64,000 bases of DNA from a virus (taxonomy: Duplodnaviria > Caudoviricetes): positions 32,001-96,000 of the IMG/VR virus record IMGVR_UViG_2600255075_000001; one strand, given 5' to 3'. The stretch's first letter is position 1; each line of letters opens with the position of its first letter. Below the pieces are notes generated by a model that was not told the DNA's origin, did no database searches, and saw only the letters and a program-made list of their open reading frames with translations. Shown here piece after piece: positions 8,374 through 42,630 of this stretch. Position numbers and translations under genes: made by a program.

Positions 8374-9600
8374 TTATTGATTTAAGGCATTCACAAAATC
8401 TAAAGCTTCTTTAAGTTTTTCTGTATCATCCGATTTTAGAAAATTAACCACTCCGAGCAGTTCTTTCATTTTAGGCGCCACGATATCACTCTTGACCTCG
8501 TTGGCAATATCCTTCAAGGCATTTTTCAGTTCATTATGATAGTCTTCAGCAGTTTTCTCATCTTCATCTTTCAAACTGTCGATCATGTCTTCGGAAAATC
8601 GCTTAGCTTTCTCTTCCAACACTTCAATTTCTTTCTTACGGATATCTTCAAAGGAATCACCTTCGTCAAGTTGTCCTTCAATTGCCTCTTTAAACACCCT
8701 TACATATGTATCAATTCCATACAACTCTTTTTCTGGCAACACTTTAAAGCGTCCACCGGCGATACCAATATAACTAGATTCTCTAAAGTACATATAAGTT
8801 TGTGATTCATGAAACTTCGTAGCAATCTCTTTGCCATTTTTGTTTTCTAGGTTTTTATTTAATTCATTTCCTTCTTTATCTAAAGCTGTAACTTCATTGT
8901 GTAGGCAACAAATTAGATCTGCTTGCGACTGGAATACTTTACGGCAAGTAGTATTCATCATTAGCTCGATTGAGTTATATTTCACGCCATTGACGAGTTC
9001 TGTTGTTTTTTCTTTTGTCCAAGCTAAAAAAATCAAACCGTAGCCTGCAGCCCTTAATGTATCAATTGGGCGTTTAAGCTCGTCATATAGATTATTCCAT
9101 ACATTATCTTTATAAATCTTCGATTCTGATAATTCTTGAATTGATGTGAAATTATTTCCGGGATACTTGTTATTCGCATTAACGATGATATAAGCAGAAG
9201 CGCAATCAATCATTCTGTCAACAGTGTCGAATCCTACCACTTTAGAAATACGAGAAACCTTTGATTCCTGTACTAGCCCAGTTACTATTTCTTGTTTGAA
9301 ATAAATCCACCTGTCTGAATCCATCTCAATATCGGTCTTTATTTTTATCTTACCATTTTTAATTTTTTCTTCTTCTTTTTTATATTCCACCAAATCGATT
9401 TTCGATTTCAGTTTCCACGTTTTATACCCAGGTTCCCAAGCTACAAGCAGTCCTGCTTCTGGTTCGTTAGGGAAAAAGTATTCAATGATTTCCTTCCACC
9501 AACGAGTCTTGCCTGATTTATAATTTCCAGCCGTTAATAAGATATAGGATTGTAAGTCTACCTTTGGAATATTCGCCGTAACGAGATTTCGAAAAGACAA
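8374..9600 (-). CDS. AAA_24/Sak4-like ATPase (SPbeta YorG-like)
   Basis: Walker A GNYKSGKT and Walker B VVGFDTVD; adjacent to the SSB-like gene. Confidence 0.7.
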   Translation of the reverse strand: MSFRNLVTANIPKVDLQSYILLTAGNYKSGKTRWWKEIIEYFFPNEPEAGLLVAWEPGYKTWKLKSKIDLVEYKKEEEKIKNGKIKIKTDIEMDSDRWIYFKQEIVTGLVQESKVSRISKVVGFDTVDRMIDCASAYIIVNANNKYPGNNFTSIQELSESKIYKDNVWNNLYDELKRPIDTLRAAGYGLIFLAWTKEKTTELVNGVKYNSIELMMNTTCRKVFQSQADLICCLHNEVTALDKEGNELNKNLENKNGKEIATKFHESQTYMYFRESSYIGIAGGRFKVLPEKELYGIDTYVRVFKEAIEGQLDEGDSFEDIRKKEIEVLEEKAKRFSEDMIDSLKDEDEKTAEDYHNELKNALKDIANEVKSDIVAPKMKELLGVVNFLKSDDTEKLKEALDFVNALNQ

Positions 9601-9659
9601 TTAGTTATTCTCCTTTGTTTTTTCTATTTCTAGACTTTAGTTTAATGTTTTACTTCTAA

Positions 9660-10802: not shown

Positions 10803-10937
10803 TTAAAAATATCATTCTCCTTTTATATTAATTTCTTTTACTTTATATGTGCATTTCACTATAAAATTCTTCTTTTATTGCTGCTCTCTTCTCCTTTCTC
10901 AGAGTATCTATATAATCACCATATGGTGTTATTTTAG

Positions 10938-11011
10938 TGGGCCCTGGGGGACTCGAACCCCCGACCAATCGGTTATGAGCCGACCGCTCTAACCAACTGA
11001 GCTAAGGGCCC
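10938..11011 (-). tRNA. tRNA with CAU anticodon, most likely tRNA-Ile2 (lysidine); CCA not encoded
   Basis: GGGCCCTTAGCTCAGTTGGTTAGAGCGGTCGGCTCATAACCGATTGGTCGGGGGTTCGAGTCCCCCAGGGCCCA folds as a cloverleaf and resembles the Bacillus Ile2 tRNA. It is followed by CTA. Confidence 0.93.
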
Positions 11012-13679: not shown

Positions 13680-13967
13680 TTATTGTCTTTTGTACATTAA
13701 GACGCTCGAAGCCTTATTATCATAATAGAACTTCATATTTCGAGAGTCATCTTTAGACAGCGGTATAAGATGTATTTCAGCCCTGTGTTCATAATCTTTC
13801 TTTTTTAGAGTCCAATCTAGATTGTAATTCACAAAATCATAACCATCGCAGAGTACACATACATCTATGTCACTATCAATATGTGCGCGCCCTGTCACTT
13901 GAGATCCAATAATTAAGACTTCGTCTACAAAATCAAAACTTGCAAGATAATCCGTAAACTTCTTCAA
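13680..13967 (-). CDS. Minimal nucleotidyltransferase (MNT) domain protein
   Basis: IGSQVTG...SDIDVCV motif; TTG start after GAGGGG. Confidence 0.8.
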   Translation of the reverse strand: MKKFTDYLASFDFVDEVLIIGSQVTGRAHIDSDIDVCVLCDGYDFVNYNLDWTLKKKDYEHRAEIHLIPLSKDDSRNMKFYYDNKASSVLMYKRQ

Positions 13968-14244
13968 ATTGAACCCCTCAGTTGTATTCACTGTCTGTAT
14001 CTCCTTCCGGAAAGTATCATTACTATTTGTAATCCCATAGCCTAACAGAATCCTGGTCAAACTCCTCAACTACACCGTTGTACAATTTAATTTTAACCTT
14101 TGAAATAACATCTTTCGAAAATCCTTGGTATGAACCGGGGTGCTCCAGATAAACAACGCCGTTTCTTCCTTTTCCTGATACAATCACTTTATCATTAATT
14201 TTCATAAGTCATCCTCCTAATGAAATTGTTGTTTTATCGGCCGC

Positions 14245-15024
14245 CTATTTTCTAAAAGTTCTTTCGTAGTCTTCAAAACGAATCTTACGAATCTGTTTTC
14301 TGTCTGCAGAGCGAGCAATTATACCTTCCGACTCTCCAATAGCATCAATGCCTACCTTTGTTTGCTCAAAGTTTCTCAAATATCGATAGGTCTCCTCTAA
14401 GGTAACTGGGAACTCTGATCCATACACTTCGTCCAGAAGTGGAGCCCATTCCAACCCATTCGCCTGAACAAATTTCCCCCTCTCTTCCTCGTTATAAAAA
14501 GGTTGATTTCCATGTTCGCGCCATTCAGCGATTTTTTCACTGGATAAAGATAGAAGGTTTTCAAGTTCATTCACGGTTAAGGAGAATACATCAAACACCT
14601 TATATGATTGCGTTTTACTGTCCGTATAATTCTTCGCTGCCTTTGTCTTACCGCCGTAAGATTCCTGATATACGACTGTCAATGCCCAATCCCCACTAGG
14701 AAAGTTATCTTCGACAAATCTTTCTGCCATTGGCTTAAGGAAATTTGCTATATTCCCATATGGATTTCCAATACGATCTCCCTTGGCATAAAGCAGTTCT
14801 TCTCTTGAGCCAATTAAATAGTCAATTTCATCAAATTGATTCCTAAAGAAAATAATACGTGAGTTCTCGCCATCTACTTTCTCATACACAAAAATTTTAT
14901 CTGAATCAGTTAGATACCCTCTTTCTTCTACTGCTTCTTCAGTTAGTTTTCCTCTTTCACCTAGTTTATGATATGTAAGGATGCTTGGATATTTCGTAAT
15001 CGAATTAATTTTTTTAAGATCCAC
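14245..15024 (-). CDS. ATP-dependent RNA ligase family protein
   Basis: Motif I EKVDGEN, VFDV, motif IV EGII and terminal KIR; no OB domain. Confidence 0.8.
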   Translation of the reverse strand: MDLKKINSITKYPSILTYHKLGERGKLTEEAVEERGYLTDSDKIFVYEKVDGENSRIIFFRNQFDEIDYLIGSREELLYAKGDRIGNPYGNIANFLKPMAERFVEDNFPSGDWALTVVYQESYGGKTKAAKNYTDSKTQSYKVFDVFSLTVNELENLLSLSSEKIAEWREHGNQPFYNEEERGKFVQANGLEWAPLLDEVYGSEFPVTLEETYRYLRNFEQTKVGIDAIGESEGIIARSADRKQIRKIRFEDYERTFRK

Positions 15025-15929: not shown

Positions 15930-15960
15930 AAAAAATACCGCATTACTTCATGCGGTATTT
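15930..15960 (-). terminator. Intrinsic terminator of the agr-like operon
   Basis: AAATACCGCA-N8-TGCGGTATTT hairpin with a T tract on the minus strand. Confidence 0.75.
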
Positions 15961-15963
15961 AAT

Positions 15964-16479
15964 CTAATGAAAGGTTGTCTTTTTAATGCCAATAGGCGAG
16001 TATTCAAACCTATCATTACAAACATCCATGTCTTTACTTAGGTGAGTTTTTAAAAAGTCTCTAATAACTCTATCCTGGATGCCTGCGACGAAAGGATGTT
16101 TAGTGTAATCGGCCTCAGTAAAATATATATTCCTCAACTTTGAGTCAAATTTTTTGATTTTCGGTATATTGATAGCTAGTCGCTTGTCTACAAACAGAAA
16201 TCCCTCTTCTTCCGAAATCATACCTATCAAATCTAAATGCTTATCGTGATATTTATAAGTCTTAGTTATAGTATGAACCATTGTTTCCTTACCCGGTTTA
16301 TCAACAAACAAAATATCATTGATATCTATCCATATCAGAGCATTATCCTCAACAGTCATAATCGTTCTGGGCTTATACTCACTATTCACTTTCTCCGCTA
16401 TCTCCAATACATCTGACTCGCAGAGCAAAGATCCAACTTTATTAAACAATGCCTCCCTAACGAATTTGATAATGGACAT
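15964..16479 (-). CDS. LytTR DNA-binding protein without a receiver domain
   Basis: WIDINDILFVD...TMVHT...FLFVDKRLAINIPKIKKFD LytTR pattern; ATG at 16479 after AAAGGTGA. Confidence 0.8.
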   Translation of the reverse strand: MSIIKFVREALFNKVGSLLCESDVLEIAEKVNSEYKPRTIMTVEDNALIWIDINDILFVDKPGKETMVHTITKTYKYHDKHLDLIGMISEEEGFLFVDKRLAINIPKIKKFDSKLRNIYFTEADYTKHPFVAGIQDRVIRDFLKTHLSKDMDVCNDRFEYSPIGIKKTTFH

Positions 16480-16549
16480 ATTAATCACCTTTACTTTTTT
16501 AGTCCCCTTGATATTAGATACCAAGGGGCCAATTGGTTTTATAGCTTTT

Positions 16550-16666
16550 TCACTTTCTAACTTTTGGTTCATGGAACCAGATGTTAACTTTATCTACAGT
16601 ATTTTGCTCATTCTTTTTACCAATTTTCATGATTGCTTTCCCAAACCCTACGATAATTTTATTCAT
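16550..16666 (-). CDS. agrD: AgrD-like autoinducer peptide precursor (38 aa; absent from the ORF track)
   Basis: MNKIIVGFGKAIMKIGKKNEQNTVDKVNIWFHEPKVRK has an amphipathic leader and a WFHEP tail. Strong AAAGGAGG RBS; in an operon with agrB. Confidence 0.75.
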   Translation of the reverse strand: MNKIIVGFGKAIMKIGKKNEQNTVDKVNIWFHEPKVRK

Positions 16667-17381
16667 TTATAGGTCCTCCTTTCAAATTTTTCGATTCGAA
16701 TTTACTAATATGGTAGCTAGTTTCATCCGAATTTCTTCTATATGAAAAATACAGGAATAAGCAAAAGAGTGTAAAGATTGCTATAGAGTACATGTAATAG
16801 CTGCCGTACTTTACAGGGGTGTCTACTAAAGTATAACCTGCAGAAAGGATTAGAATAATGAACAACGATACATGAAAATAAATTGTGGTTTTTTTATCAA
16901 TAGATCTAAAACCAAAAGCAAATCCTTGTTTCATAATCATAATGTATACGGAAATTGTATAGGCAATAAGTGAACAAATTACTTGAGATATATCTGATTT
17001 ATAGTTCATCGGTAGTGTAGCCTCTTCAAATGTTGAGAAGAACCCAGAGCGAACACTTAGGTGAACATAAACGGTTTGTATTAAGACGTAAAACACATTT
17101 CCTGCGATAACAACCCAGGTTGAATAAAGCCAGTTTTTTTCTTTGAAAACGTTCCTAATTAGAAGTATCAATGCTCCTATTTGAACAATCGTCATCACTG
17201 CTAATAGATCATACTCATAAAGTAAGAATGAAAGCACGGACATTAGTAAGCTGGTGAATAAAATCTCTCTCTTGTAGTACTGTAATTTGAAACCAAAAAT
17301 AGTCAGTGATAATACGATTAACGCACTGAACTCCAAAAAGGAAAGGAATATGTACCTAGCCGCAATCAACATGATTGTCAT
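16659..17381 (-). CDS. Polytopic membrane protein resembling the AgrC sensor domain, with no kinase domain
   Basis: About 7 TM segments and a short cytoplasmic tail with no H-box or HATPase; lies between agrB and agrD. Confidence 0.7.
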   Translation of the reverse strand: MTIMLIAARYIFLSFLEFSALIVLSLTIFGFKLQYYKREILFTSLLMSVLSFLLYEYDLLAVMTIVQIGALILLIRNVFKEKNWLYSTWVVIAGNVFYVLIQTVYVHLSVRSGFFSTFEEATLPMNYKSDISQVICSLIAYTISVYIMIMKQGFAFGFRSIDKKTTIYFHVSLFIILILSAGYTLVDTPVKYGSYYMYSIAIFTLFCLFLYFSYRRNSDETSYHISKFESKNLKGGPINE

Positions 17382-17898
17382 GCACGCCCTTTGTAAAATA
17401 GATAAGGTGAATCGCCTGTATAAATATAGCGGCGCTAATGATAGCTGATCGATATATATATATATTGCCTGTTACTATAATGAGGCCGATTATCTTATAG
17501 AGTAAAAAGTTTTTGTTAAATGACATTCCCTTTCTAAAAGGTCCAAATAAAATAATAAGAAAGAACGATAAGCTGTCCATGAGCAACTTGTAATCATCAA
17601 CCGCATGCCCTATGTATGGTATTACAATAATAAGAGTAACAGTATATAGAACGCATAAGTCACTTGAAGGAAGGTGATGTCCTCCCAAAATAGCGCGCAT
17701 TACACCCAAAAGAACCATTCCGAGCAAAGTTTCAATTACCCTATTGGTGACTACTGATAAAATCAATACCAACAAAATTATCAACCCAAAATTTATTATC
17801 TTTTTTAAGCCTCGTTCTAATTCATCTTTTTTTAATTTATTTAAAGTATCCTTGTTTAGAATCCAATCAGTAAGTGTTTCTGCGAGGTAATAAACCAG
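17356..17898 (-). CDS. agrB: AgrB family peptide-processing membrane protease (probable CTG start)
   Basis: MRAILGGHHLPSSDLC carries the catalytic His and Cys; TM helices. Confidence 0.85.
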   Translation of the reverse strand: MVYYLAETLTDWILNKDTLNKLKKDELERGLKKIINFGLIILLVLILSVVTNRVIETLLGMVLLGVMRAILGGHHLPSSDLCVLYTVTLIIVIPYIGHAVDDYKLLMDSLSFFLIILFGPFRKGMSFNKNFLLYKIIGLIIVTGNIYIYRSAIISAAIFIQAIHLIYFTKGVHDNHVDCG

Positions 17899-18040
17899 TC
17901 GTCCACCACTCCTTCCATTATCCACCTTTAATATAGTTGTTCTCAGTAAATCGCACAAGAATTATTTTCCTATTACTAATATATCATTATAATATTTTAT
18001 TGTAAAGTTTTATTATTATGTTAAAAATAACCCGACAGGG

Positions 18041-19042
18041 TTATTGTTCATACACTTTTATGATCGTTTCAACATTCAAAAAATCCTCTTTAAGTCGGTG
18101 GTAGTTATATACCTCATAACCATTATTCATAACTTTTGATATACCAAACTTCTCACTTATTTCTTCATAATGATCTTTTTTAATTTCTCCATGCTTATCA
18201 TAAAAGCTTTTGGCCATATAGAGCATTCCAGAATTTCTTATTATATATGGCGACAAAACTCTTACCCAATCATCGTTATAACTTTTAACTGCCGCGATTC
18301 TCCGTTGAATCAAAAATTTATCTGCCTTACCATTAGTCTGACTGCGAGTAATAACATTCCTCAATACATAATCGCTCTGTTCTAAGTTAGCCTCTGCTGA
18401 CGATCTCATAGTGGGCTTTAGAATACCATTTTTTTTAATATAGGTCTTTTGATCAAGAGCTTTATACATTAAATTCATAAAATCTGAAGACACGTTGATA
18501 ACTCTCTCGTGTTCGCCGTCTGTTAAAGAAATCAGATTCTCACTCACGATGCTTTGACGCTTCAGATTTAGCAATTCATCGTAGCCACTTTTACCAAAAA
18601 CGCCTTCAAAGATTGCGATTATCGGAAATGCATCTTGAGCATTTACACACACACTAATCATACTATCAATTTCATCTTTTGTATAAAGCGACTTTTTAGA
18701 TATATCTATAAACTTTTTAAAATAATTATTTTCTGCCAGCACATCTAATGGATTAATATTTGTATCTCTCAGGTCCTGTTCTATTCCCCATCTTATATAG
18801 TTCTGGACCATATAAAAGTTCGAGCGGCTGGCATTCAGAGTTGATGGATTTAGGTAATGAAGTAAATTTTCAATCTGATCCAGCGTAAAATTATACAAAT
18901 CTTGCCCATATGTTTCTTCTATTGATTTGGCCCTTGAAAGAATTCTACGCGCTTGGAGTGAAGTAGTCTCTGGCAGAGAGTTTACGTATCTCATTTTTTG
19001 ATACTCGTTAAAATACCCGCCTTCATAAATTTTGTTTGACAT
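18041..19042 (-). CDS. Tyrosine-recombinase-fold repressor, MrpR (SPbeta YopR)-like
   Basis: Integrase-like fold lacking the RHRY tetrad; IRNSGMLY motif; follows the YopQ-like gene as in SPbeta. Confidence 0.7.
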   Translation of the reverse strand: MSNKIYEGGYFNEYQKMRYVNSLPETTSLQARRILSRAKSIEETYGQDLYNFTLDQIENLLHYLNPSTLNASRSNFYMVQNYIRWGIEQDLRDTNINPLDVLAENNYFKKFIDISKKSLYTKDEIDSMISVCVNAQDAFPIIAIFEGVFGKSGYDELLNLKRQSIVSENLISLTDGEHERVINVSSDFMNLMYKALDQKTYIKKNGILKPTMRSSAEANLEQSDYVLRNVITRSQTNGKADKFLIQRRIAAVKSYNDDWVRVLSPYIIRNSGMLYMAKSFYDKHGEIKKDHYEEISEKFGISKVMNNGYEVYNYHRLKEDFLNVETIIKVYEQ

Positions 19043-19062: not shown

Positions 19063-20358
19063 TCAAGATATCCAACTCTTAATATCAATTTTTTCGAAGT
19101 GATCTTTTACTAACTTTTGCAGACGAGACGAAGCTCCTTTGTTGTAAGTAACCACTTTATCTAGCTCTTTAACTTCTTCAATAATTGTCTCAATGACATT
19201 CTTTATTTTACTAAACGACACATCGTTTTCTTTAAATATTTTTGCAATAACAATGTACCCAATAAACATGCGCGGCTGCCTTAGAAGACTTGTTTTTGTA
19301 TTGAACTCATCATCAAAAACCCCTAGCAAATTGTTGAAGAAGTCTGTTAAATATACCCCAACTTCCTTTGCTTCGAAAGCAGTTTTTGGCTCAAATACCT
19401 GGTCGATTGCATTTGCTAAAATATCTGTAGTCGTGTAATGGCCTGCCAATTCGCTAATCTTTGAACCTGAGGCAATCTTTCCTTTGAGATCGGAATTGAT
19501 CTGTAATTGTTTAACGGCAACATAAGAAACTTTCTCTTGTTTGAGTTGCTCAAGTCGTTCAGTTTTAACTACGTTGATAGTGTTAATTTGACCAAAATAC
19601 TTTTTAGCGGTATCTGTGTCATAAACTCGTATACTCAATATTATATCTTGCTGCAGATCCGGATTAACAGATAAAGCCCTTACTGCTCCTTGAAGTCGGT
19701 GAAATCCATCAAGAATAGAGATGGTAGCTCCTTCCTTAATAGTCAAGACTTTAGATTTTGGATTGTATGTTATCGGATCGAAATCCTCAGAATAGACGTT
19801 TAGAGTAATCATATCAGGCAGATATGTTTCATTTAACATATGTTCTGCAATATCTTTTACGCTTTGCAAATTAACATCTGGTACAGGGACAACCCCATCT
19901 CTTCCCTTTTTATATTTGGCGCTTCTCTGTGTTTCGAAATCGTAAACAATAATCTTGTTATGGTACCATTTTACTGGCTCCGAAATTTTAATTGTAGTAA
20001 CAAAATTTTCATGATCAATTTGTAGCACACTGTTAATCGATATAGGAAGATTAACATCTTTAACTTCCTTGCCTGTATACTTCCTTGCTTCTGATATCTC
20101 ACCTTCAGTAAAATAATTTTCTGCTCTCACTTCGTCAGACCCATCAATTTTAAATACGGCCATTGAGATAAGACAGAGAACAGCGGTATCAATTTCTCCA
20201 AGTAAATTTTCGTTTTTAATAATTTCGTTAAAAAATCCAGAAGGTATGTCATATTCGGATAAATTTTTATTTACTTCCTCAATATTTTTTCTTTTATATT
20301 TTATTCTTTCTATTGCATTAGTCAGATTGCTTTCAAGTTCGCTACGGTCACGCAACAT
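19063..20358 (-). CDS. DndB/ParB-like DGQHR-family protein (SPbeta YopQ-like)
   Basis: ILDGFHR motif; synteny with the YopR-like gene. Confidence 0.75.
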   Translation of the reverse strand: MLRDRSELESNLTNAIERIKYKRKNIEEVNKNLSEYDIPSGFFNEIIKNENLLGEIDTAVLCLISMAVFKIDGSDEVRAENYFTEGEISEARKYTGKEVKDVNLPISINSVLQIDHENFVTTIKISEPVKWYHNKIIVYDFETQRSAKYKKGRDGVVPVPDVNLQSVKDIAEHMLNETYLPDMITLNVYSEDFDPITYNPKSKVLTIKEGATISILDGFHRLQGAVRALSVNPDLQQDIILSIRVYDTDTAKKYFGQINTINVVKTERLEQLKQEKVSYVAVKQLQINSDLKGKIASGSKISELAGHYTTTDILANAIDQVFEPKTAFEAKEVGVYLTDFFNNLLGVFDDEFNTKTSLLRQPRMFIGYIVIAKIFKENDVSFSKIKNVIETIIEEVKELDKVVTYNKGASSRLQKLVKDHFEKIDIKSWIS

Positions 20359-20420
20359 AATAAAAACTCCTTCCTTCATACCACATACTATAGTCATTAT
20401 ATCACAGATTGTTGACTATA

Positions 20421-24998: not shown

Positions 24999-25481
24999 CT
25001 ATCTGTTTCCCATCACTTGCCACGCAGCACTAGATGGTGTGTAAATTTTTTTATTATCCCCATCTCTGCACCACACAACAAAATGCTCACAATTATTAAA
25101 TACTAGATTATAGCCTGTTGTATACAATTTACTATATGCTTTTTGAATTGCCTCCTCCCGGCTGCAATTCAATGGGCTGTTTCTTATTTCAATTGCTTTC
25201 CCATTTTTAAAAGTCTCGATTGTATCCATTTGTATAATTCCTAAGCCATCTACCTTTGTGAAATGAATCACCATTCCATCACCTATATAGATTCCATGAT
25301 GAATATATCCGCAAAAAACCGAAATGTGATCTCCTTTTACTATTTCAGGGTCCTTACCAAAGAATGCATGTATCGCTTTATATGGCGCAGCCTGAGAGCT
25401 TTCAACAGCATTGATTGTTGTTCTTGTCACTCTTTCAATTGCTTCGCTCAGTAAGGTTAAAGTATACTTCAAGCAAAACAC
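24999..25481 (-). CDS. LRAT family (permuted NlpC/P60) protein
   Basis: HHGIYIGDGMVIHF and YNLVFNNCEHF motifs. Confidence 0.85.
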   Translation of the reverse strand: MFCLKYTLTLLSEAIERVTRTTINAVESSQAAPYKAIHAFFGKDPEIVKGDHISVFCGYIHHGIYIGDGMVIHFTKVDGLGIIQMDTIETFKNGKAIEIRNSPLNCSREEAIQKAYSKLYTTGYNLVFNNCEHFVVWCRDGDNKKIYTPSSAAWQVMGNR

Positions 25482-31929: not shown

Positions 31930-32055
31930 GTAACTATCTCCCTATGTATAATCGTTTATTTTTACAGAACAGACATTGCTCTTCACCAAGTACTTAAAGC
32001 ATATTTCTTCTTCTTTATACAAGTCAATTCTTGTATAAAATATTCATTTCATTTT

Positions 32056-40008: not shown

Positions 40009-42630
40009 TTATATAGCTTCTGCCGCGTCATCCTCCATCTTATCAATAATAACTAGGACAGTATTAACTGAGGTTCCCGATTCTTTAAAAGATCCTTCGG
40101 GTAACATATCGTAGTATCCACGCTCATTTAACCATTCGCGGAATTCTACACTTTTAAAATCGTTCGCAAAGGTGAAATGAGGAGACATGATAGCAACAAT
40201 ACGTCCACCATTCTTTAGGCACTTATAGGCATGCTGCACATGGGCTATGTCTTTGTTGCGTTCGAATGGAGGATTCATAATGATTTTGTCGAAATGGTTA
40301 TATCTAACATGTTCAAGGAAATCATATCCAACAATATTGTATTGTTTAAGTTCTAAAATCTCACGAAGTGAACTGTTCCACTCTATCCCCTCTAGATCCG
40401 CAGCTATGCCGTTTTGCTGACAATGTGCTGTTATACTGTCTAGAATGTTCCCATTACCCGCAGACGGTTCGAGGACTGTCTCTCCGTCTTTAATATCTGC
40501 ATAGCTCAGCATGTGTTCAACAATGGTTTTAGGTGTAGGATAGTAGCCGTCTATTTTCTTGAATTTAACCTCAGCTTCAAGTTTCTTGATTTTCTTTATT
40601 ATTGGGTTTACCGGCTTCTCAATTTCCGCGATGATTGTTTCATATTCATCTAATGCACTGTTGTATTGATATGTATTGCATATATTCGCTCTATTAAGCA
40701 TCTTTTGTTTTTTGGGAACTTGAAGATTCCACATGCCATCAAGAGGTAAACTATAATCAATTTCAGGATATTTAGTCTCCCGTTTAAACTTTGTTCTTGA
40801 GATAAATCGATTATGAATGTCATCTCTAAACGTACCAACTAAAAGAGCTTGTTCTAATTGTGTCATGCTGTTATGGATTGCTTTATCTTTTAGATATTGA
40901 AGCAAAGCAATTTCAAGTCGTAGCCTTTCCCGCTTATTTTCTCTATTTTCCTCCTCATTTTGACGCTTCCATGTGTTAGTAAGATAGTTTCTGCTTATTG
41001 CATTAAGTTTCTTTTGTGCCGATTCAATTTGCTTCTCAATCTTGCCAATATTTTGTTCCTGATTGGATGAAATTGGGTTTTTATCGGTTTTCTCTCCATT
41101 TTGCTGTTTCATCTTTGAGCTGCTGATATTCATTACTTTTAGCGATTCCAGAGCCTCCACAATGAGGGAAGAGCCTTGCCCATAGGAACGGAATAGTCCA
41201 ATCAAGATCTCGGATACGAAGAAGCCTCTTTCTTTTACATAGTCCGATATCTTTGCTTTATATTCTGTTTTCTCTTCCTCAGTTTCTGGACGCTTAATAT
41301 TGCCATACTGATCCGACATAATAGATGTGGAATAGTCCATAATCCAATCTGCAGCATCTTCTATGGTAATGCTGGTATCATGAGCGCCGGCTGTTATAGG
41401 TGATTCTTGAGCCTCTGCAAAGCCTAATAGCGCTTTTAACTCTGCTGTGATATCGTGACCATTCTTCGATTTGGTAATAAGTTGTGATGCTTTGTCTTTA
41501 GTAATGACAAGGTTTGTCGTATTGAGTTTTGTAGCACAATGGAGAGCCCACAATTGACGCTTAGTTGCCTGTTTTTCATCAGTTACAGTTTCATTTTTCG
41601 TGTAAGTTTGCTTCTTCTCTGTTGACGCCTCTTCGGTGTCTCCGGACAATGCTGGTGCGTCCATATTTGCTTTAGGTTGTTTACGCGACGTCTTCTTAAA
41701 TACAATTTTCTCTTCATATTCTGTTGCTTCTTGCAATTCAACGATAGAAATGTGTCCTTTCTGAAGGAGATCGTTTATTTTGTCCGTAGACACAAACATT
41801 GTTTTTCCTTTAGCCTTAGAAGGCTTGCCATTCTTGCCAAGTTTGGAAAAAGATCCGCTTTTCTTGTCATCATAAACATACACACATTGCCACTTAGTAC
41901 CCTTCCAATTGCCGTTAGTGTAGTCGCACTTCATAATGAACGTAGTTCCAGTTTTAAAATCTTCTGCTGTTATAAAGGTTTTTTCAACTTCTACAAATTT
42001 AACGATCGTTCTAGGAACAAGTATAATTTCTGATTCAAGTGTATCGGAATTGCGCAGAACCTTTTCGAAACGGTTCACAATAGCAATTACTCTTTCTTGT
42101 TTCTGTTGTTCAGCCGTTTTTGTTTTATCTTTATAATCATAATCATTGCAAGCGAATACGCCGGTTCCCTTGCCTATAATTTGACCGTCCTTTTCAATAT
42201 GCCAAGAACAATTACCTGGATTTTCATAAGTGAATGAAGGGTAAGTTTCAACAACTGTAAATTGCGGTTCCGTATCCCTGCATCTCAGACGTTCGATACC
42301 TGCTAGAGCCGCCGCGCGCTCCCCTTCGGTAGCACCAGAGTTAGCGGCCGCAAGTTTGTGTAATTTTTCTAATTTACGATTAATATCCTGATTGGTTTTA
42401 ACACTGCTATAAAGTACTTGCTTCTTTTCATATCCCGAATAGTATGTATTAGAATGATCGATAACGAGAACATAACCATTTTTTTCAGCGAGACCATCCC
42501 AAGAAGCTGGGTCAAAATAATCAGTCATTGAGTCGCTGCAATCTTCTTTATACCCATAAGTCTTCCAGCCACGTTTAACGAGTTCCCGCATAATTAATAC
42601 TTTAGCTTCTCTCTTATCTCCATACCACAT
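40009..42630 (-). CDS. Large multidomain protein with a C-terminal N6-adenine methyltransferase domain
   Basis: YYPTP, VLEPSAGNG and IMNPPF motifs in the last ~190 aa. Confidence 0.8.
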   Translation of the reverse strand: MWYGDKREAKVLIMRELVKRGWKTYGYKEDCSDSMTDYFDPASWDGLAEKNGYVLVIDHSNTYYSGYEKKQVLYSSVKTNQDINRKLEKLHKLAAANSGATEGERAAALAGIERLRCRDTEPQFTVVETYPSFTYENPGNCSWHIEKDGQIIGKGTGVFACNDYDYKDKTKTAEQQKQERVIAIVNRFEKVLRNSDTLESEIILVPRTIVKFVEVEKTFITAEDFKTGTTFIMKCDYTNGNWKGTKWQCVYVYDDKKSGSFSKLGKNGKPSKAKGKTMFVSTDKINDLLQKGHISIVELQEATEYEEKIVFKKTSRKQPKANMDAPALSGDTEEASTEKKQTYTKNETVTDEKQATKRQLWALHCATKLNTTNLVITKDKASQLITKSKNGHDITAELKALLGFAEAQESPITAGAHDTSITIEDAADWIMDYSTSIMSDQYGNIKRPETEEEKTEYKAKISDYVKERGFFVSEILIGLFRSYGQGSSLIVEALESLKVMNISSSKMKQQNGEKTDKNPISSNQEQNIGKIEKQIESAQKKLNAISRNYLTNTWKRQNEEENRENKRERLRLEIALLQYLKDKAIHNSMTQLEQALLVGTFRDDIHNRFISRTKFKRETKYPEIDYSLPLDGMWNLQVPKKQKMLNRANICNTYQYNSALDEYETIIAEIEKPVNPIIKKIKKLEAEVKFKKIDGYYPTPKTIVEHMLSYADIKDGETVLEPSAGNGNILDSITAHCQQNGIAADLEGIEWNSSLREILELKQYNIVGYDFLEHVRYNHFDKIIMNPPFERNKDIAHVQHAYKCLKNGGRIVAIMSPHFTFANDFKSVEFREWLNERGYYDMLPEGSFKESGTSVNTVLVIIDKMEDDAAEAI

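Follow-up and report, generated by a model that had tools for sequence, protein, structure and literature searches.

Organization of the cassette

Between positions 32,001 and 96,000 of the record IMGVR_UViG_2600255075_000001 lies a 64,000-nucleotide (nt) stretch of phage DNA, here called the window and used for all positions below, in which a cassette of four genes, resembling in part the agr peptide-signalling systems, adjoins a lysogeny repressor. All of the cassette genes are on the minus strand, along which the order is a YopQ-like gene, an MrpR-like gene, a promoter-like site, AgrB, a membrane protein, an open reading frame (ORF) of 38 amino acids (aa), a LytTR protein, and a terminator, as listed here:

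19063..20397, minus strand: YopQ-like gene (DndB/DGQHR-type), 444 aa, the first of the conserved lysogeny pair (Pfam DndB, phrog_5732)
18041..19042, minus strand: MrpR/YopR-like repressor with a recombinase-like fold, 333 aa (Pfam MrpR_N_CB, MrpR_C_cat)
17978..18006, minus strand: promoter-like site TTTACA-17-TATATT with TG, between the MrpR stop and AgrB (scan score 10/12)
17356..17958, minus strand: AgrB-like membrane peptidase (Pfam AgrB), 200 aa from TTG 17958 or 180 aa from CTG 17898
16659..17381, minus strand: kinase-less 7-helix membrane protein, 240 aa (family profile E 3.3e-60)
16550..16666, minus strand: precursor-like ORF, 38 aa, MNKIIVGFGKAIMKIGKKNEQNTVDKVNIWFHEPKVRK, with the ribosome-binding site (RBS) AAAGGAGG 8 nt upstream
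15964..16479, minus strand: stand-alone LytTR-domain protein, 171 aa, no receiver (Pfam LytTR)
15933..15960, minus strand: intrinsic-terminator-like hairpin closing the cassette (11-pair stem, 4 GC pairs, T-run)
15956..17868, no strand: block swapped for a non-matching allele in a sister prophage (blastn of locus L010 against the window)

Much of what an earlier note had read from the letters of this DNA is upheld by database searches. The AgrB, for which an intact His/Cys pair had been claimed, matches Pfam PF04647 (E 4.4e-12, 46.2 bits against a cut-off of 23), with His95 and Cys102 invariant in an alignment, and the membrane protein, described as having about seven transmembrane helices and no histidine-kinase domain, has no HisKA or HATPase match in its 240 aa and is modelled by AlphaFold as seven long helices. 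The LytTR protein, as stated, lacks a receiver, given a LytTR match just over the cut-off and no Response_reg match, and the same searches recovered both the closing terminator (an 11-pair hairpin with a T-run at 15960..15933) and the location directly downstream of the YopQ/MrpR-like genes, which match Pfam DndB, MrpR_N_CB and MrpR_C_cat, as well as phrog_5830 and phrog_5732.

None of the four cassette frames is interrupted; all have ribosome sites, and their junctions are tight or overlapping. The membrane-protein gene overlaps AgrB by 26 nt, and the 38-aa ORF overlaps the stop of the membrane-protein gene. Given that it has an RBS (AAAGGTGA), that the listed start at 16572 (a 202-aa frame) falls inside the peptide ORF, and that the sister homologue has 172 aa, the ATG at 16479 (171 aa) is the likelier start of the LytTR gene, and this ATG leaves the LytTR gene clear of the peptide ORF. 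The start of AgrB is uncertain between TTG 17958, as used in the source-annotated relative P0003, and CTG 17898 behind AAGGAG, which is the coordinate of the earlier note. The promoter-like site at 18006..17978 is the top-scoring one of the regional scan, although the total count of such sites across the region does not exceed that of shuffled sequences and is at chance level. A 5-bp hairpin with a T-run was spotted by eye after the MrpR stop, and was not reported by the terminator scan.

The kinase-less membrane protein and its family

The membrane protein and 42 relatives scanned with it (43 members) match no Pfam or NCBIfam family. An AlphaFold model on the 43-member family alignment has a predicted local distance difference test (pLDDT) value of 92.7 and a predicted template modelling score of 0.89, the single sequence yielding a poor model (pLDDT 49), and the protein ends 26 residues past helix 7. 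The Lys and Arg counts predict a topology with the N-terminus outside and the C-terminus inside, which places the 26-residue tail inside, and the predicted cytoplasmic loops are better conserved than the outer ones (mean top-residue frequency 0.41-0.49 vs 0.19-0.39). The window protein conforms to the hallmarks of the family alignment (A1), i.e., a length of about 210-250 aa, seven helices, FS..E in helix 1, Q in helices 4 and 5, N.GFGF in inner loop 5, and a K/R-R-D..E tail.

An exhaustive HMMER search of 1.8 billion representatives returned 51 proteins at E <= 0.001, including the query, nearly all of 208-240 aa, and a word-based protein search with the membrane protein returned only itself. 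A six-frame search of 101 related genomes with the single protein found the family in 39 of them, at 59 places, all of which are open frames of 52-291 aa, and the family profile extended this to 75 of the 101 genomes. At 48 of the 59 places, a Pfam AgrB match is no more than 1.5 kb away (the coordinates being cross-read by eye), which makes this a widespread bacterial module, and not, as the earlier note had it, an architecture peculiar to the phage. Arrays of the family also occur, two genomes (G083 and G082) holding 13-19 members each.

The same domain is also the membrane part of histidine kinases. The family profile matches over positions 1-214 (E 1e-29 to 1e-35) at the N-terminus of six proteins of 452-469 aa from three genomes of one genus (G098, G086, G071; loci L041-L043), which keep the family motifs and, in the alignment, continue directly into an H-box, with HATPase_c present in all three of the fusions scanned by Pfam. 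These fusions were found by the six-frame profile search, a word-based search of alignment A1 against proteins of 421-2000 aa having returned nothing, which is weak evidence. Their operons contain a REC-type regulator, the kinase or kinases, and AgrB, and two of the three also have a small ORF resembling AgrD; the regulator, scanned in two loci, has REC alone in one and REC plus a GerE match below the cut-off in the other. Given that this domain is the N-terminal sensor of kinases located beside AgrB and AgrD, the cassette protein can be read as a peptide-sensor module that lost its kinase, and the fact that the family occupies the place of the AgrC sensor argues for a receptor rather than an enzyme. 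The stand-alone copy in a phage-like element of G071 is visibly close to the kinase-borne sensors of the same genus, and the free and fused forms therefore appear to exchange.

Further kinase genes were also seen. In G067, a weaker family match (32.7 bits, helices 1-5) runs, across an in-frame TAA, into an SPOB_a/HATPase_c_5 core beside AgrB. This interrupted AgrC-like gene (L040:1039-2361, G067:C58) has the TAA between helix 5 and the rest, giving parts of 161 aa and 278 aa, and may represent a pseudogene, a pair of separate genes, or an error in the sequence data. At L041:4848-6206 and L042:1652-3004, a second, convergent AgrC-type kinase (SPOB_a plus HATPase_c_5, 450-452 aa) lies just past AgrD, so that two kinds of kinase flank one AgrBD pair. 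Two structural comparisons of the membrane protein were set aside, i.e., VIA-align against all representatives, whose best Z of 8.6 (Pex3) is not meaningful for a helical bundle, and an ESM Atlas neighbour, a GHKL-domain cluster with a template modelling score of 0.70, used as a lead only.

The LytTR partnership

The LytTR match covers residues 79-152 of the 202-aa frame (Pfam E 9.1e-5), the window protein aligns with 11 partner LytTR proteins, and its language-model neighbours are all short LytTR clusters, with scores of 0.88-0.89. The neighbourhoods of the family were compared in 20 loci taken from the 59 places, the top-scoring ones first and then those already seen beside AgrB; the AgrB count in this sample (19 of 20) is biased by the selection, the unbiased count being 48 of 59, and the LytTR count was not selected for. 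A LytTR-domain ORF lies directly downstream, on the same strand, in 17 of the 20 loci, one further locus having it in divergent orientation, another at a distance of 2.3 kb, and another having none. Eleven of the 17 downstream ORFs are short (110-172 aa) and have no receiver, and six have about 600 aa. No conserved kinase or receiver was found in these related neighbourhoods, and the LytTR domain, either short or fused, is therefore the constant partner of the sensor, rather than a receiver.

All four of the long ORFs that were scanned are LytTR-GGDEF-EAL fusions of about 600 aa, with the LytTR domain at the N-terminus, directly downstream of sensor-AgrB-AgrD (L016:1370-3178, L018:1776-3596, L024:4890-6701, L026:1414-3234), and further LytTR ORFs of about 600 aa are found at L020:5287-7095 and L021:1540-3393. 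In these loci, the peptide signal may be wired to the turnover of cyclic di-GMP (c-di-GMP) through the LytTR domain, and the ability of this domain to precede an enzyme suggests that it is the part that receives the signal of the sensor. On these comparisons, the module consists of a sensor, AgrB, a small ORF, and a LytTR domain, with DNA binding or c-di-GMP turnover as its probable output.

HTH_3-LytTR fusions (221-224 aa) followed by arrays of 3-4 paralogous family membrane proteins of about 200-225 aa were also observed upstream of the sensor-AgrB module (L020:352-3675, L021:4927-7926, L016:4973-6536).

Allele replacement and linkage to MrpR

A sister prophage, found in G002 (locus L010), which belongs to the same genus, has the same gene order within the block and a different allele of the cassette. 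By blastn, the left flank (window 20539-17869) is 92.8% identical to the window, the cassette block (17868-15956) has no nucleotide match, and the right flank, which resumes at 15955, is 82.5% identical, the base after the LytTR stop codon being 15963. The same boundary is seen in the proteins, with YopQ and MrpR 95.8% and 96.4% identical between the two prophages, AgrB 41.9% (86.7% over the first 30 aa and 33.3% over the rest), the sensor 28.4%, the peptide 37.8%, and LytTR 35.5%. This replacement looks like that of a specificity allele, resembling the specificity groups of agr, and the inclusion of the regulator in the variable block would be expected if the LytTR protein must fit its own sensor.

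The cassette is also repeatedly linked to the repressor. MrpR-like genes are found in 11 of the 101 genomes, and in four of these (G000, which contains the window, G002, G045, and G071) the cassette lies within 2 kb. The last two are distant, low-GC elements whose MrpR is 31-33% identical to that of the window. In G045 (GC 32%, MrpR 33% identical), the order is YopQ-MrpR-AgrB-sensor-peptide-LytTR, as in the window, and in G071 (GC 28%) it is sensor-AgrB-peptide-LytTR-104 aa-MrpR. Both the allele replacement and the repeated linkage fit a communication system with specificity groups.

The AgrB-like peptidase and the precursor-like ORF

Residues R88, G92, G93, H95, C102, P140, and K155 of the AgrB are invariant in an alignment of eight sequences (A3), in which H95 and C102 are taken here to be the equivalent of the catalytic pair of Staphylococcus aureus. 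The cassette is self-contained, given that its AgrB is the sole AgrB match of the host genome and its membrane protein the only sensor-family member. Neither tblastn with the AgrB nor blastn with the cassette in distant mode found a match in 50,697 phage records, and scans of IMG/VR with AgrB and with MrpR found no confirmed relative. The AgrB frame of the sister prophage is interrupted by a stop some 20 codons past the P0003-type TTG (L010 about 9427-9640, G002:C2); translation there may begin from a CTG that follows a strong ribosome site, and CTG 17898 of the window would fit this too.

In 14 of 19 related gaps between AgrB and LytTR, an ORF of 37-49 aa with a strong ribosome site is present, and 13 of the 14 have a tail of the [HN]-R-P-E-x-P-x-E-L type (the AgrD-type P-x-EL). 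Where a Cys occurs (L018, L022, L023), it sits five residues before the H of this tail, and other peptides have Ser, Thr, or Asn near this position; of ten peptides scored with the AgrD model, five pass. A small ORF in the same position is present in both distant phage-like elements, with Ser-type peptides ending in ...SVFWINKPVAPKELIK and ...SIFLWHQPEAPEELLQKK. The window and sister peptides have in common only NTxDKV..W.(.)P.K and a short basic tail.

The prophage and its host

The window is part of contig C30 in a genome of 6.43 Mb and 32 contigs (G000); on this contig, 5-kb segments from about 17 kb to 153 kb have 32-43% G+C, against 49-57% outside. This island of about 135 kb, with a GC of about 35% in a genome of about 53%, contains, within the window, a match to a large terminase, several PHROG families confined to phages, a tRNA-Met and a gene resembling DNA methyltransferases, and is therefore a prophage of roughly 135 kb, in the size class of SPbeta; the phage-borne nature of the cassette, proposed beforehand, is thus confirmed by the terminase and the YopQ/YopR homologues of the island. 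The gap between about 35% and about 53% G+C is unusually large for a resident prophage, and the distant elements that carry the cassette are also low (32%, 28%).

The two genes upstream of the cassette form a lysogeny module of the SPbeta type, a DndB-like YopQ followed by MrpR/YopR, in the same order as in SPbeta. The YopQ-like gene matches DndB (E 3.1e-9), as does the YopQ of SPbeta, and phrog_5732 (E 1.9e-105), and the MrpR-like gene matches MrpR_N_CB (E 1.3e-24) and MrpR_C_cat (E 6.3e-14), with about 29% identity to SPbeta yopR by tblastn. The arbitrium receptor AimR (Pfam PF22871), which had not been seen in the window, has no match over the cut-off in G000, G002, G005, G045, or G071, the Bacillus subtilis control being matched, and the SPbeta AimR protein as a query also returned nothing. 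The sole weak match (22 bits) lies in a 592-aa chromosomal frame on another contig. The absence of a recognisable aimR extends from the window to the whole genome. In the SPbeta record, the place of aimR-aimP is upstream of yopM rather than downstream of yopR.

The host has an orphan pair on contig C15 (G000:C15:56823-58857, L030), formed by a REC-LytTR regulator of 251 aa and a GHKL kinase of 432 aa, with no AgrB or AgrD nearby and a 717-aa ORF following it. The pair could in principle hear a foreign peptide. An AgrC/AgrA-like pair elsewhere, which had been named as a possible alternative source of the signalling, thus exists, and its sensor is unmatched by the family profile. The suggestion that the phage jams host quorum sensing is made less likely by a host without any other AgrB or sensor-family member, even if this orphan pair is present.

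Other accessory genes of the window include an RNA-ligase-like gene (14245-15024), a nucleotidyltransferase (Polbeta/NTP_transf_2, 13680-14069), the tRNA-Met (10937-11011), the DNA-methyltransferase-like gene (873 aa, 40009-42630), and an LRAT/NlpC-like gene (24999-25481).

Proposed mechanism and alternative explanations

The favoured interpretation, with a probability of about one half, is that the cassette is a working, self-contained, agr-derived peptide-signalling unit, in which AgrB would make a signal, the kinase-less sensor would read it, and contact would pass it to the LytTR protein. In such a pathway, AgrB would cleave and export the 38-aa precursor, and the released peptide would build up outside the cells, where it would be sensed by the 7-helix membrane protein, i.e., an AgrC-type sensor domain without the kinase. 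The sensor would then relay the signal by capturing the LytTR protein at the membrane or letting it go, with no phosphate transferred, and the freed or captured protein would alter the transcription of phage or host genes. Given that the sensor is homologous to the sensor parts of kinases and stands beside AgrB and AgrD, a phosphorylation-independent route from sensor to LytTR is the most economical reading. This part of the phosphorylation-independent, cyclic-peptide system put forward in the earlier note is supported, there being neither kinase nor receiver, and the word cyclic is not.

The maintenance or induction of lysogeny, which the earlier note had suggested might be governed in place of arbitrium, is the favoured, putative target of this pathway, with about one chance in three, and a role in the decision of the phage itself is favoured because of the repeated MrpR linkage, the allele swap, and the lack of an AimR match. 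A broader version of the proposal, tentative and rather unlikely as a whole, is that of an agr-derived phage communication system unrelated to arbitrium, in which SPbeta-like phages of Paenibacillus-type hosts would use an AgrB-processed, maybe non-thiolactone peptide, and a kinase-less receptor would directly gate LytTR to set lysogeny or induction, the swapped cassettes representing private channels (pherotypes). It would be one case of a wider, phosphate-free principle in the Paenibacillales, leading from a sensor of autoinducing peptides to LytTR, with DNA binding or c-di-GMP as the output.

A number of results weigh against this interpretation, among them those on the peptide. An AgrD precursor has an amphipathic leader, a Cys or Ser located five residues ahead of the cleavage site, and an acidic tail of the P-x-EL type. 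The window peptide has neither Cys nor Ser, scores 12 bits against a cut-off of 19 with the AgrD model TIGR04223, and has its tail shortened to HEPKVRK, and the sister-allele peptide scores nothing with the model. Neither a thiolactone or lactone ring nor processing by AgrB can therefore be assumed, and the product of this lineage may be linear or otherwise unusual. The likeness to AgrD that had been claimed for it thus holds only for the ORF itself, its position, size, strong RBS, leader, and H-x-P motif, and a cyclic peptide is not supported for an allele without Cys or Ser at the ring position.

The regulator and the sensor raise further points of this kind. The LytTR match is marginal (23.1 bits vs a cut-off of 22.6), and the sister-allele LytTR has no Pfam match whatever. 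LytTR-type direct repeats upstream of the cassette are at chance level, the best 9-mer pair (period 19-23) having 7/9 matches and being equalled by 162 of 200 shuffles, and the same was found in 18 further loci, except for L014 (13 of 200 shuffles do as well), although this test is crude and the region AT-rich. Neither Foldseek (E <= 0.001) nor a profile sequence search found anything similar to the membrane protein in PDB, and hhalign of A1 against the N-terminus of the host AgrC-like kinase gave a probability of 0.2, so that AgrC-type denotes position and role here, rather than demonstrated homology with the AgrC of S. aureus.

It is also possible, although unlikely, that signalling proceeds as proposed and the cassette is cargo (a moron) with no part in lysis-lysogeny, through which lysogens count each other and adjust host behaviour, and which lies next to the repressor only because this region is lysogen-expressed and tolerant of insertions. 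For example, the prophages of G001, G003, and G005, whose MrpR is 60-69% identical, have no cassette at this site, which holds unrelated accessory genes (ABC ATPase, GNAT, DinB) and may therefore simply be a cargo hot spot; G005, moreover, also has no AimR match over the cut-off. An accessory role is favoured by these sister phages and by the mainly chromosomal distribution of the module, with the family in 75 of 101 genomes and beside MrpR in only four. Many bacterial versions end in a c-di-GMP enzyme, a lifestyle output, and the cassette has a promoter-like site and a terminator of its own. On the other hand, three separate phage lineages have the cassette next to MrpR, with two different gene orders among them, no AimR is recognisable in the prophage, and the exact-boundary swap between near-identical phages is what would be expected if phages need private channels.

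A second, improbable alternative is that the membrane protein is an accessory of peptide maturation or export, performing an AgrE-like modification or leader removal, with the sensing done elsewhere, e.g., by the orphan REC-LytTR regulator and GHKL kinase of the host, and with LytTR as a plain regulator. A precedent exists in Paenibacillus polymyxa, where agrE, an uncharacterised gene next to agr, is reported to be needed for the N-acetylation of the peptide (PMC12180512), and the polar residues conserved inside the helices (E17, E39, Q102, Q133) would also suit an enzyme, both of which are further points against a sensor. Even so, the full-length domain is the membrane part of kinases beside AgrB and AgrD, where a sensor rather than an enzyme would stand, the tandem arrays, with up to several paralogues beside one AgrB, look like receptor diversification, and the canonical agrBDCA loci inspected in G031, G045, and G100 have no family member nearby.

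Finally, decay of the cassette in this lineage, with the loss of signalling, is very improbable. In its favour, neither Cys/Ser nor most of the AgrD tail is left in the peptide, the LytTR match is marginal, the AgrB is the lowest-scoring among the matches passing the family cut-off (E 1.4e-10 vs typically 1e-15 to 1e-20 in the related-genome search), and an in-frame stop interrupts the sister AgrB frame early, toward the 5' end and between the two candidate starts, which also weighs against a working unit. Against it, the four frames remain open with ribosome sites and tight junctions, the catalytic His and Cys are retained, P0003, a source-annotated relative of the sister allele, has an intact AgrB of 193 aa, and two alleles that are 28-42% identical keep both the four-gene layout and the peptide motif NTxDKV..W..P.K, which argues for selection.

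Relationship with known systems

Peptide communication in temperate phages is known mainly as arbitrium, in which an imported peptide binds a cytoplasmic receptor. If the signalling interpretation is correct, the cassette would represent a second, membrane-sensed phage channel made from agr parts, which would imply repeated recruitment of bacterial quorum sensing by phages, and the natural allele swaps would make it a tractable case. Phage-borne agr genes (phiCDHM1) and kinase-less LytTR systems (streptococci) are already in print. The combination of AgrB, a kinase-less sensor, and a bare LytTR protein beside a phage repressor appears, on comparative evidence, to be new, given that no description was found in the open-access literature (PMC and bioRxiv) of an AgrB/AgrD pair wired to such a sensor and a bare LytTR, of the LytTR-GGDEF-EAL form of the module, or of such a cassette beside a phage repressor.

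The cassette shares with agr (AgrBDCA) an AgrB with the His and Cys residues, an adjoining small precursor ORF, a multi-helix membrane sensor, and a LytTR-domain output. The specificity groups of agr have a hypervariable block that spans the processing enzyme, the peptide, and the sensor, and the block of the window is also variable across these three, but includes the LytTR gene as well. It further differs from agr in that its sensor has no kinase, unlike AgrC, and is unmatched in sequence to the AgrC-like sensor of the host, its LytTR protein has no receiver, unlike AgrA, its peptide has no Cys or Ser and falls below the cut-off of the AgrD model, and its gene order is B-sensor-D-LytTR.

Like arbitrium (AimR-AimP-AimX), the system of SPbeta-like phages (PMC8612738), the cassette would give a phage its own peptide signal, encoded beside the yopM-R/MrpR lysogeny genes, and its alleles diverge between related phages. 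It differs in that the prophage has no AimR match, detection of the peptide would take place at the membrane, without prior import, the location is downstream of yopQ-yopR and not upstream of yopM, and the action on lysogeny is putative. The phage phiCDHM1 of Clostridioides difficile, on the other hand, reportedly has agrB, agrD, and an agrC kinase, and no agrA. The presence of agr-type genes in this phage is documented (PMC3901668); the cassette of the window differs in having no kinase, a LytTR protein, and a position beside the repressor.

The kinase-fused sensors of G098, G086, and G071 have the homologous domain over positions 1-214 beside AgrB and, at two of these three loci, beside a small ORF of the AgrD type, but continue into an H-box and an ATPase domain and are paired with a REC-type regulator. 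To our knowledge, kinases with this sensor domain have no printed description, although no search was aimed at them. The domain thus occurs both fused and free, the free form being paired with bare LytTR or with LytTR-GGDEF-EAL in many genomes, which points to a kinase-free passing of the peptide signal across the membrane.

The LytTR Regulatory Systems (LRS) of Streptococcus mutans (HdrRM and BrsRM) have a receiver-less LytTR regulator beside a membrane protein thought to keep it inactive, with no phosphotransfer involved, and a hallmark pair of direct repeats, 11-13 bp apart, located 4-11 bp upstream of the -35 of the operon (PMC6193735). No open-access paper was found that names these systems together with AgrB. 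The window cassette similarly encodes a receiver-less LytTR protein with a membrane protein, but this protein belongs to another family, with no Pfam match in 43 members, while HdrM is assigned to DUF2154 (same source). The protein of the cassette is homologous to kinase sensor domains, the upstream direct repeats of the window are not above chance, and a signal-producing pair of the AgrB/AgrD type is built into the operon. If the proposed signalling holds, the cassette would link agr with these poorly understood systems and suggest a long-sought input signal for at least one LRS-like class.

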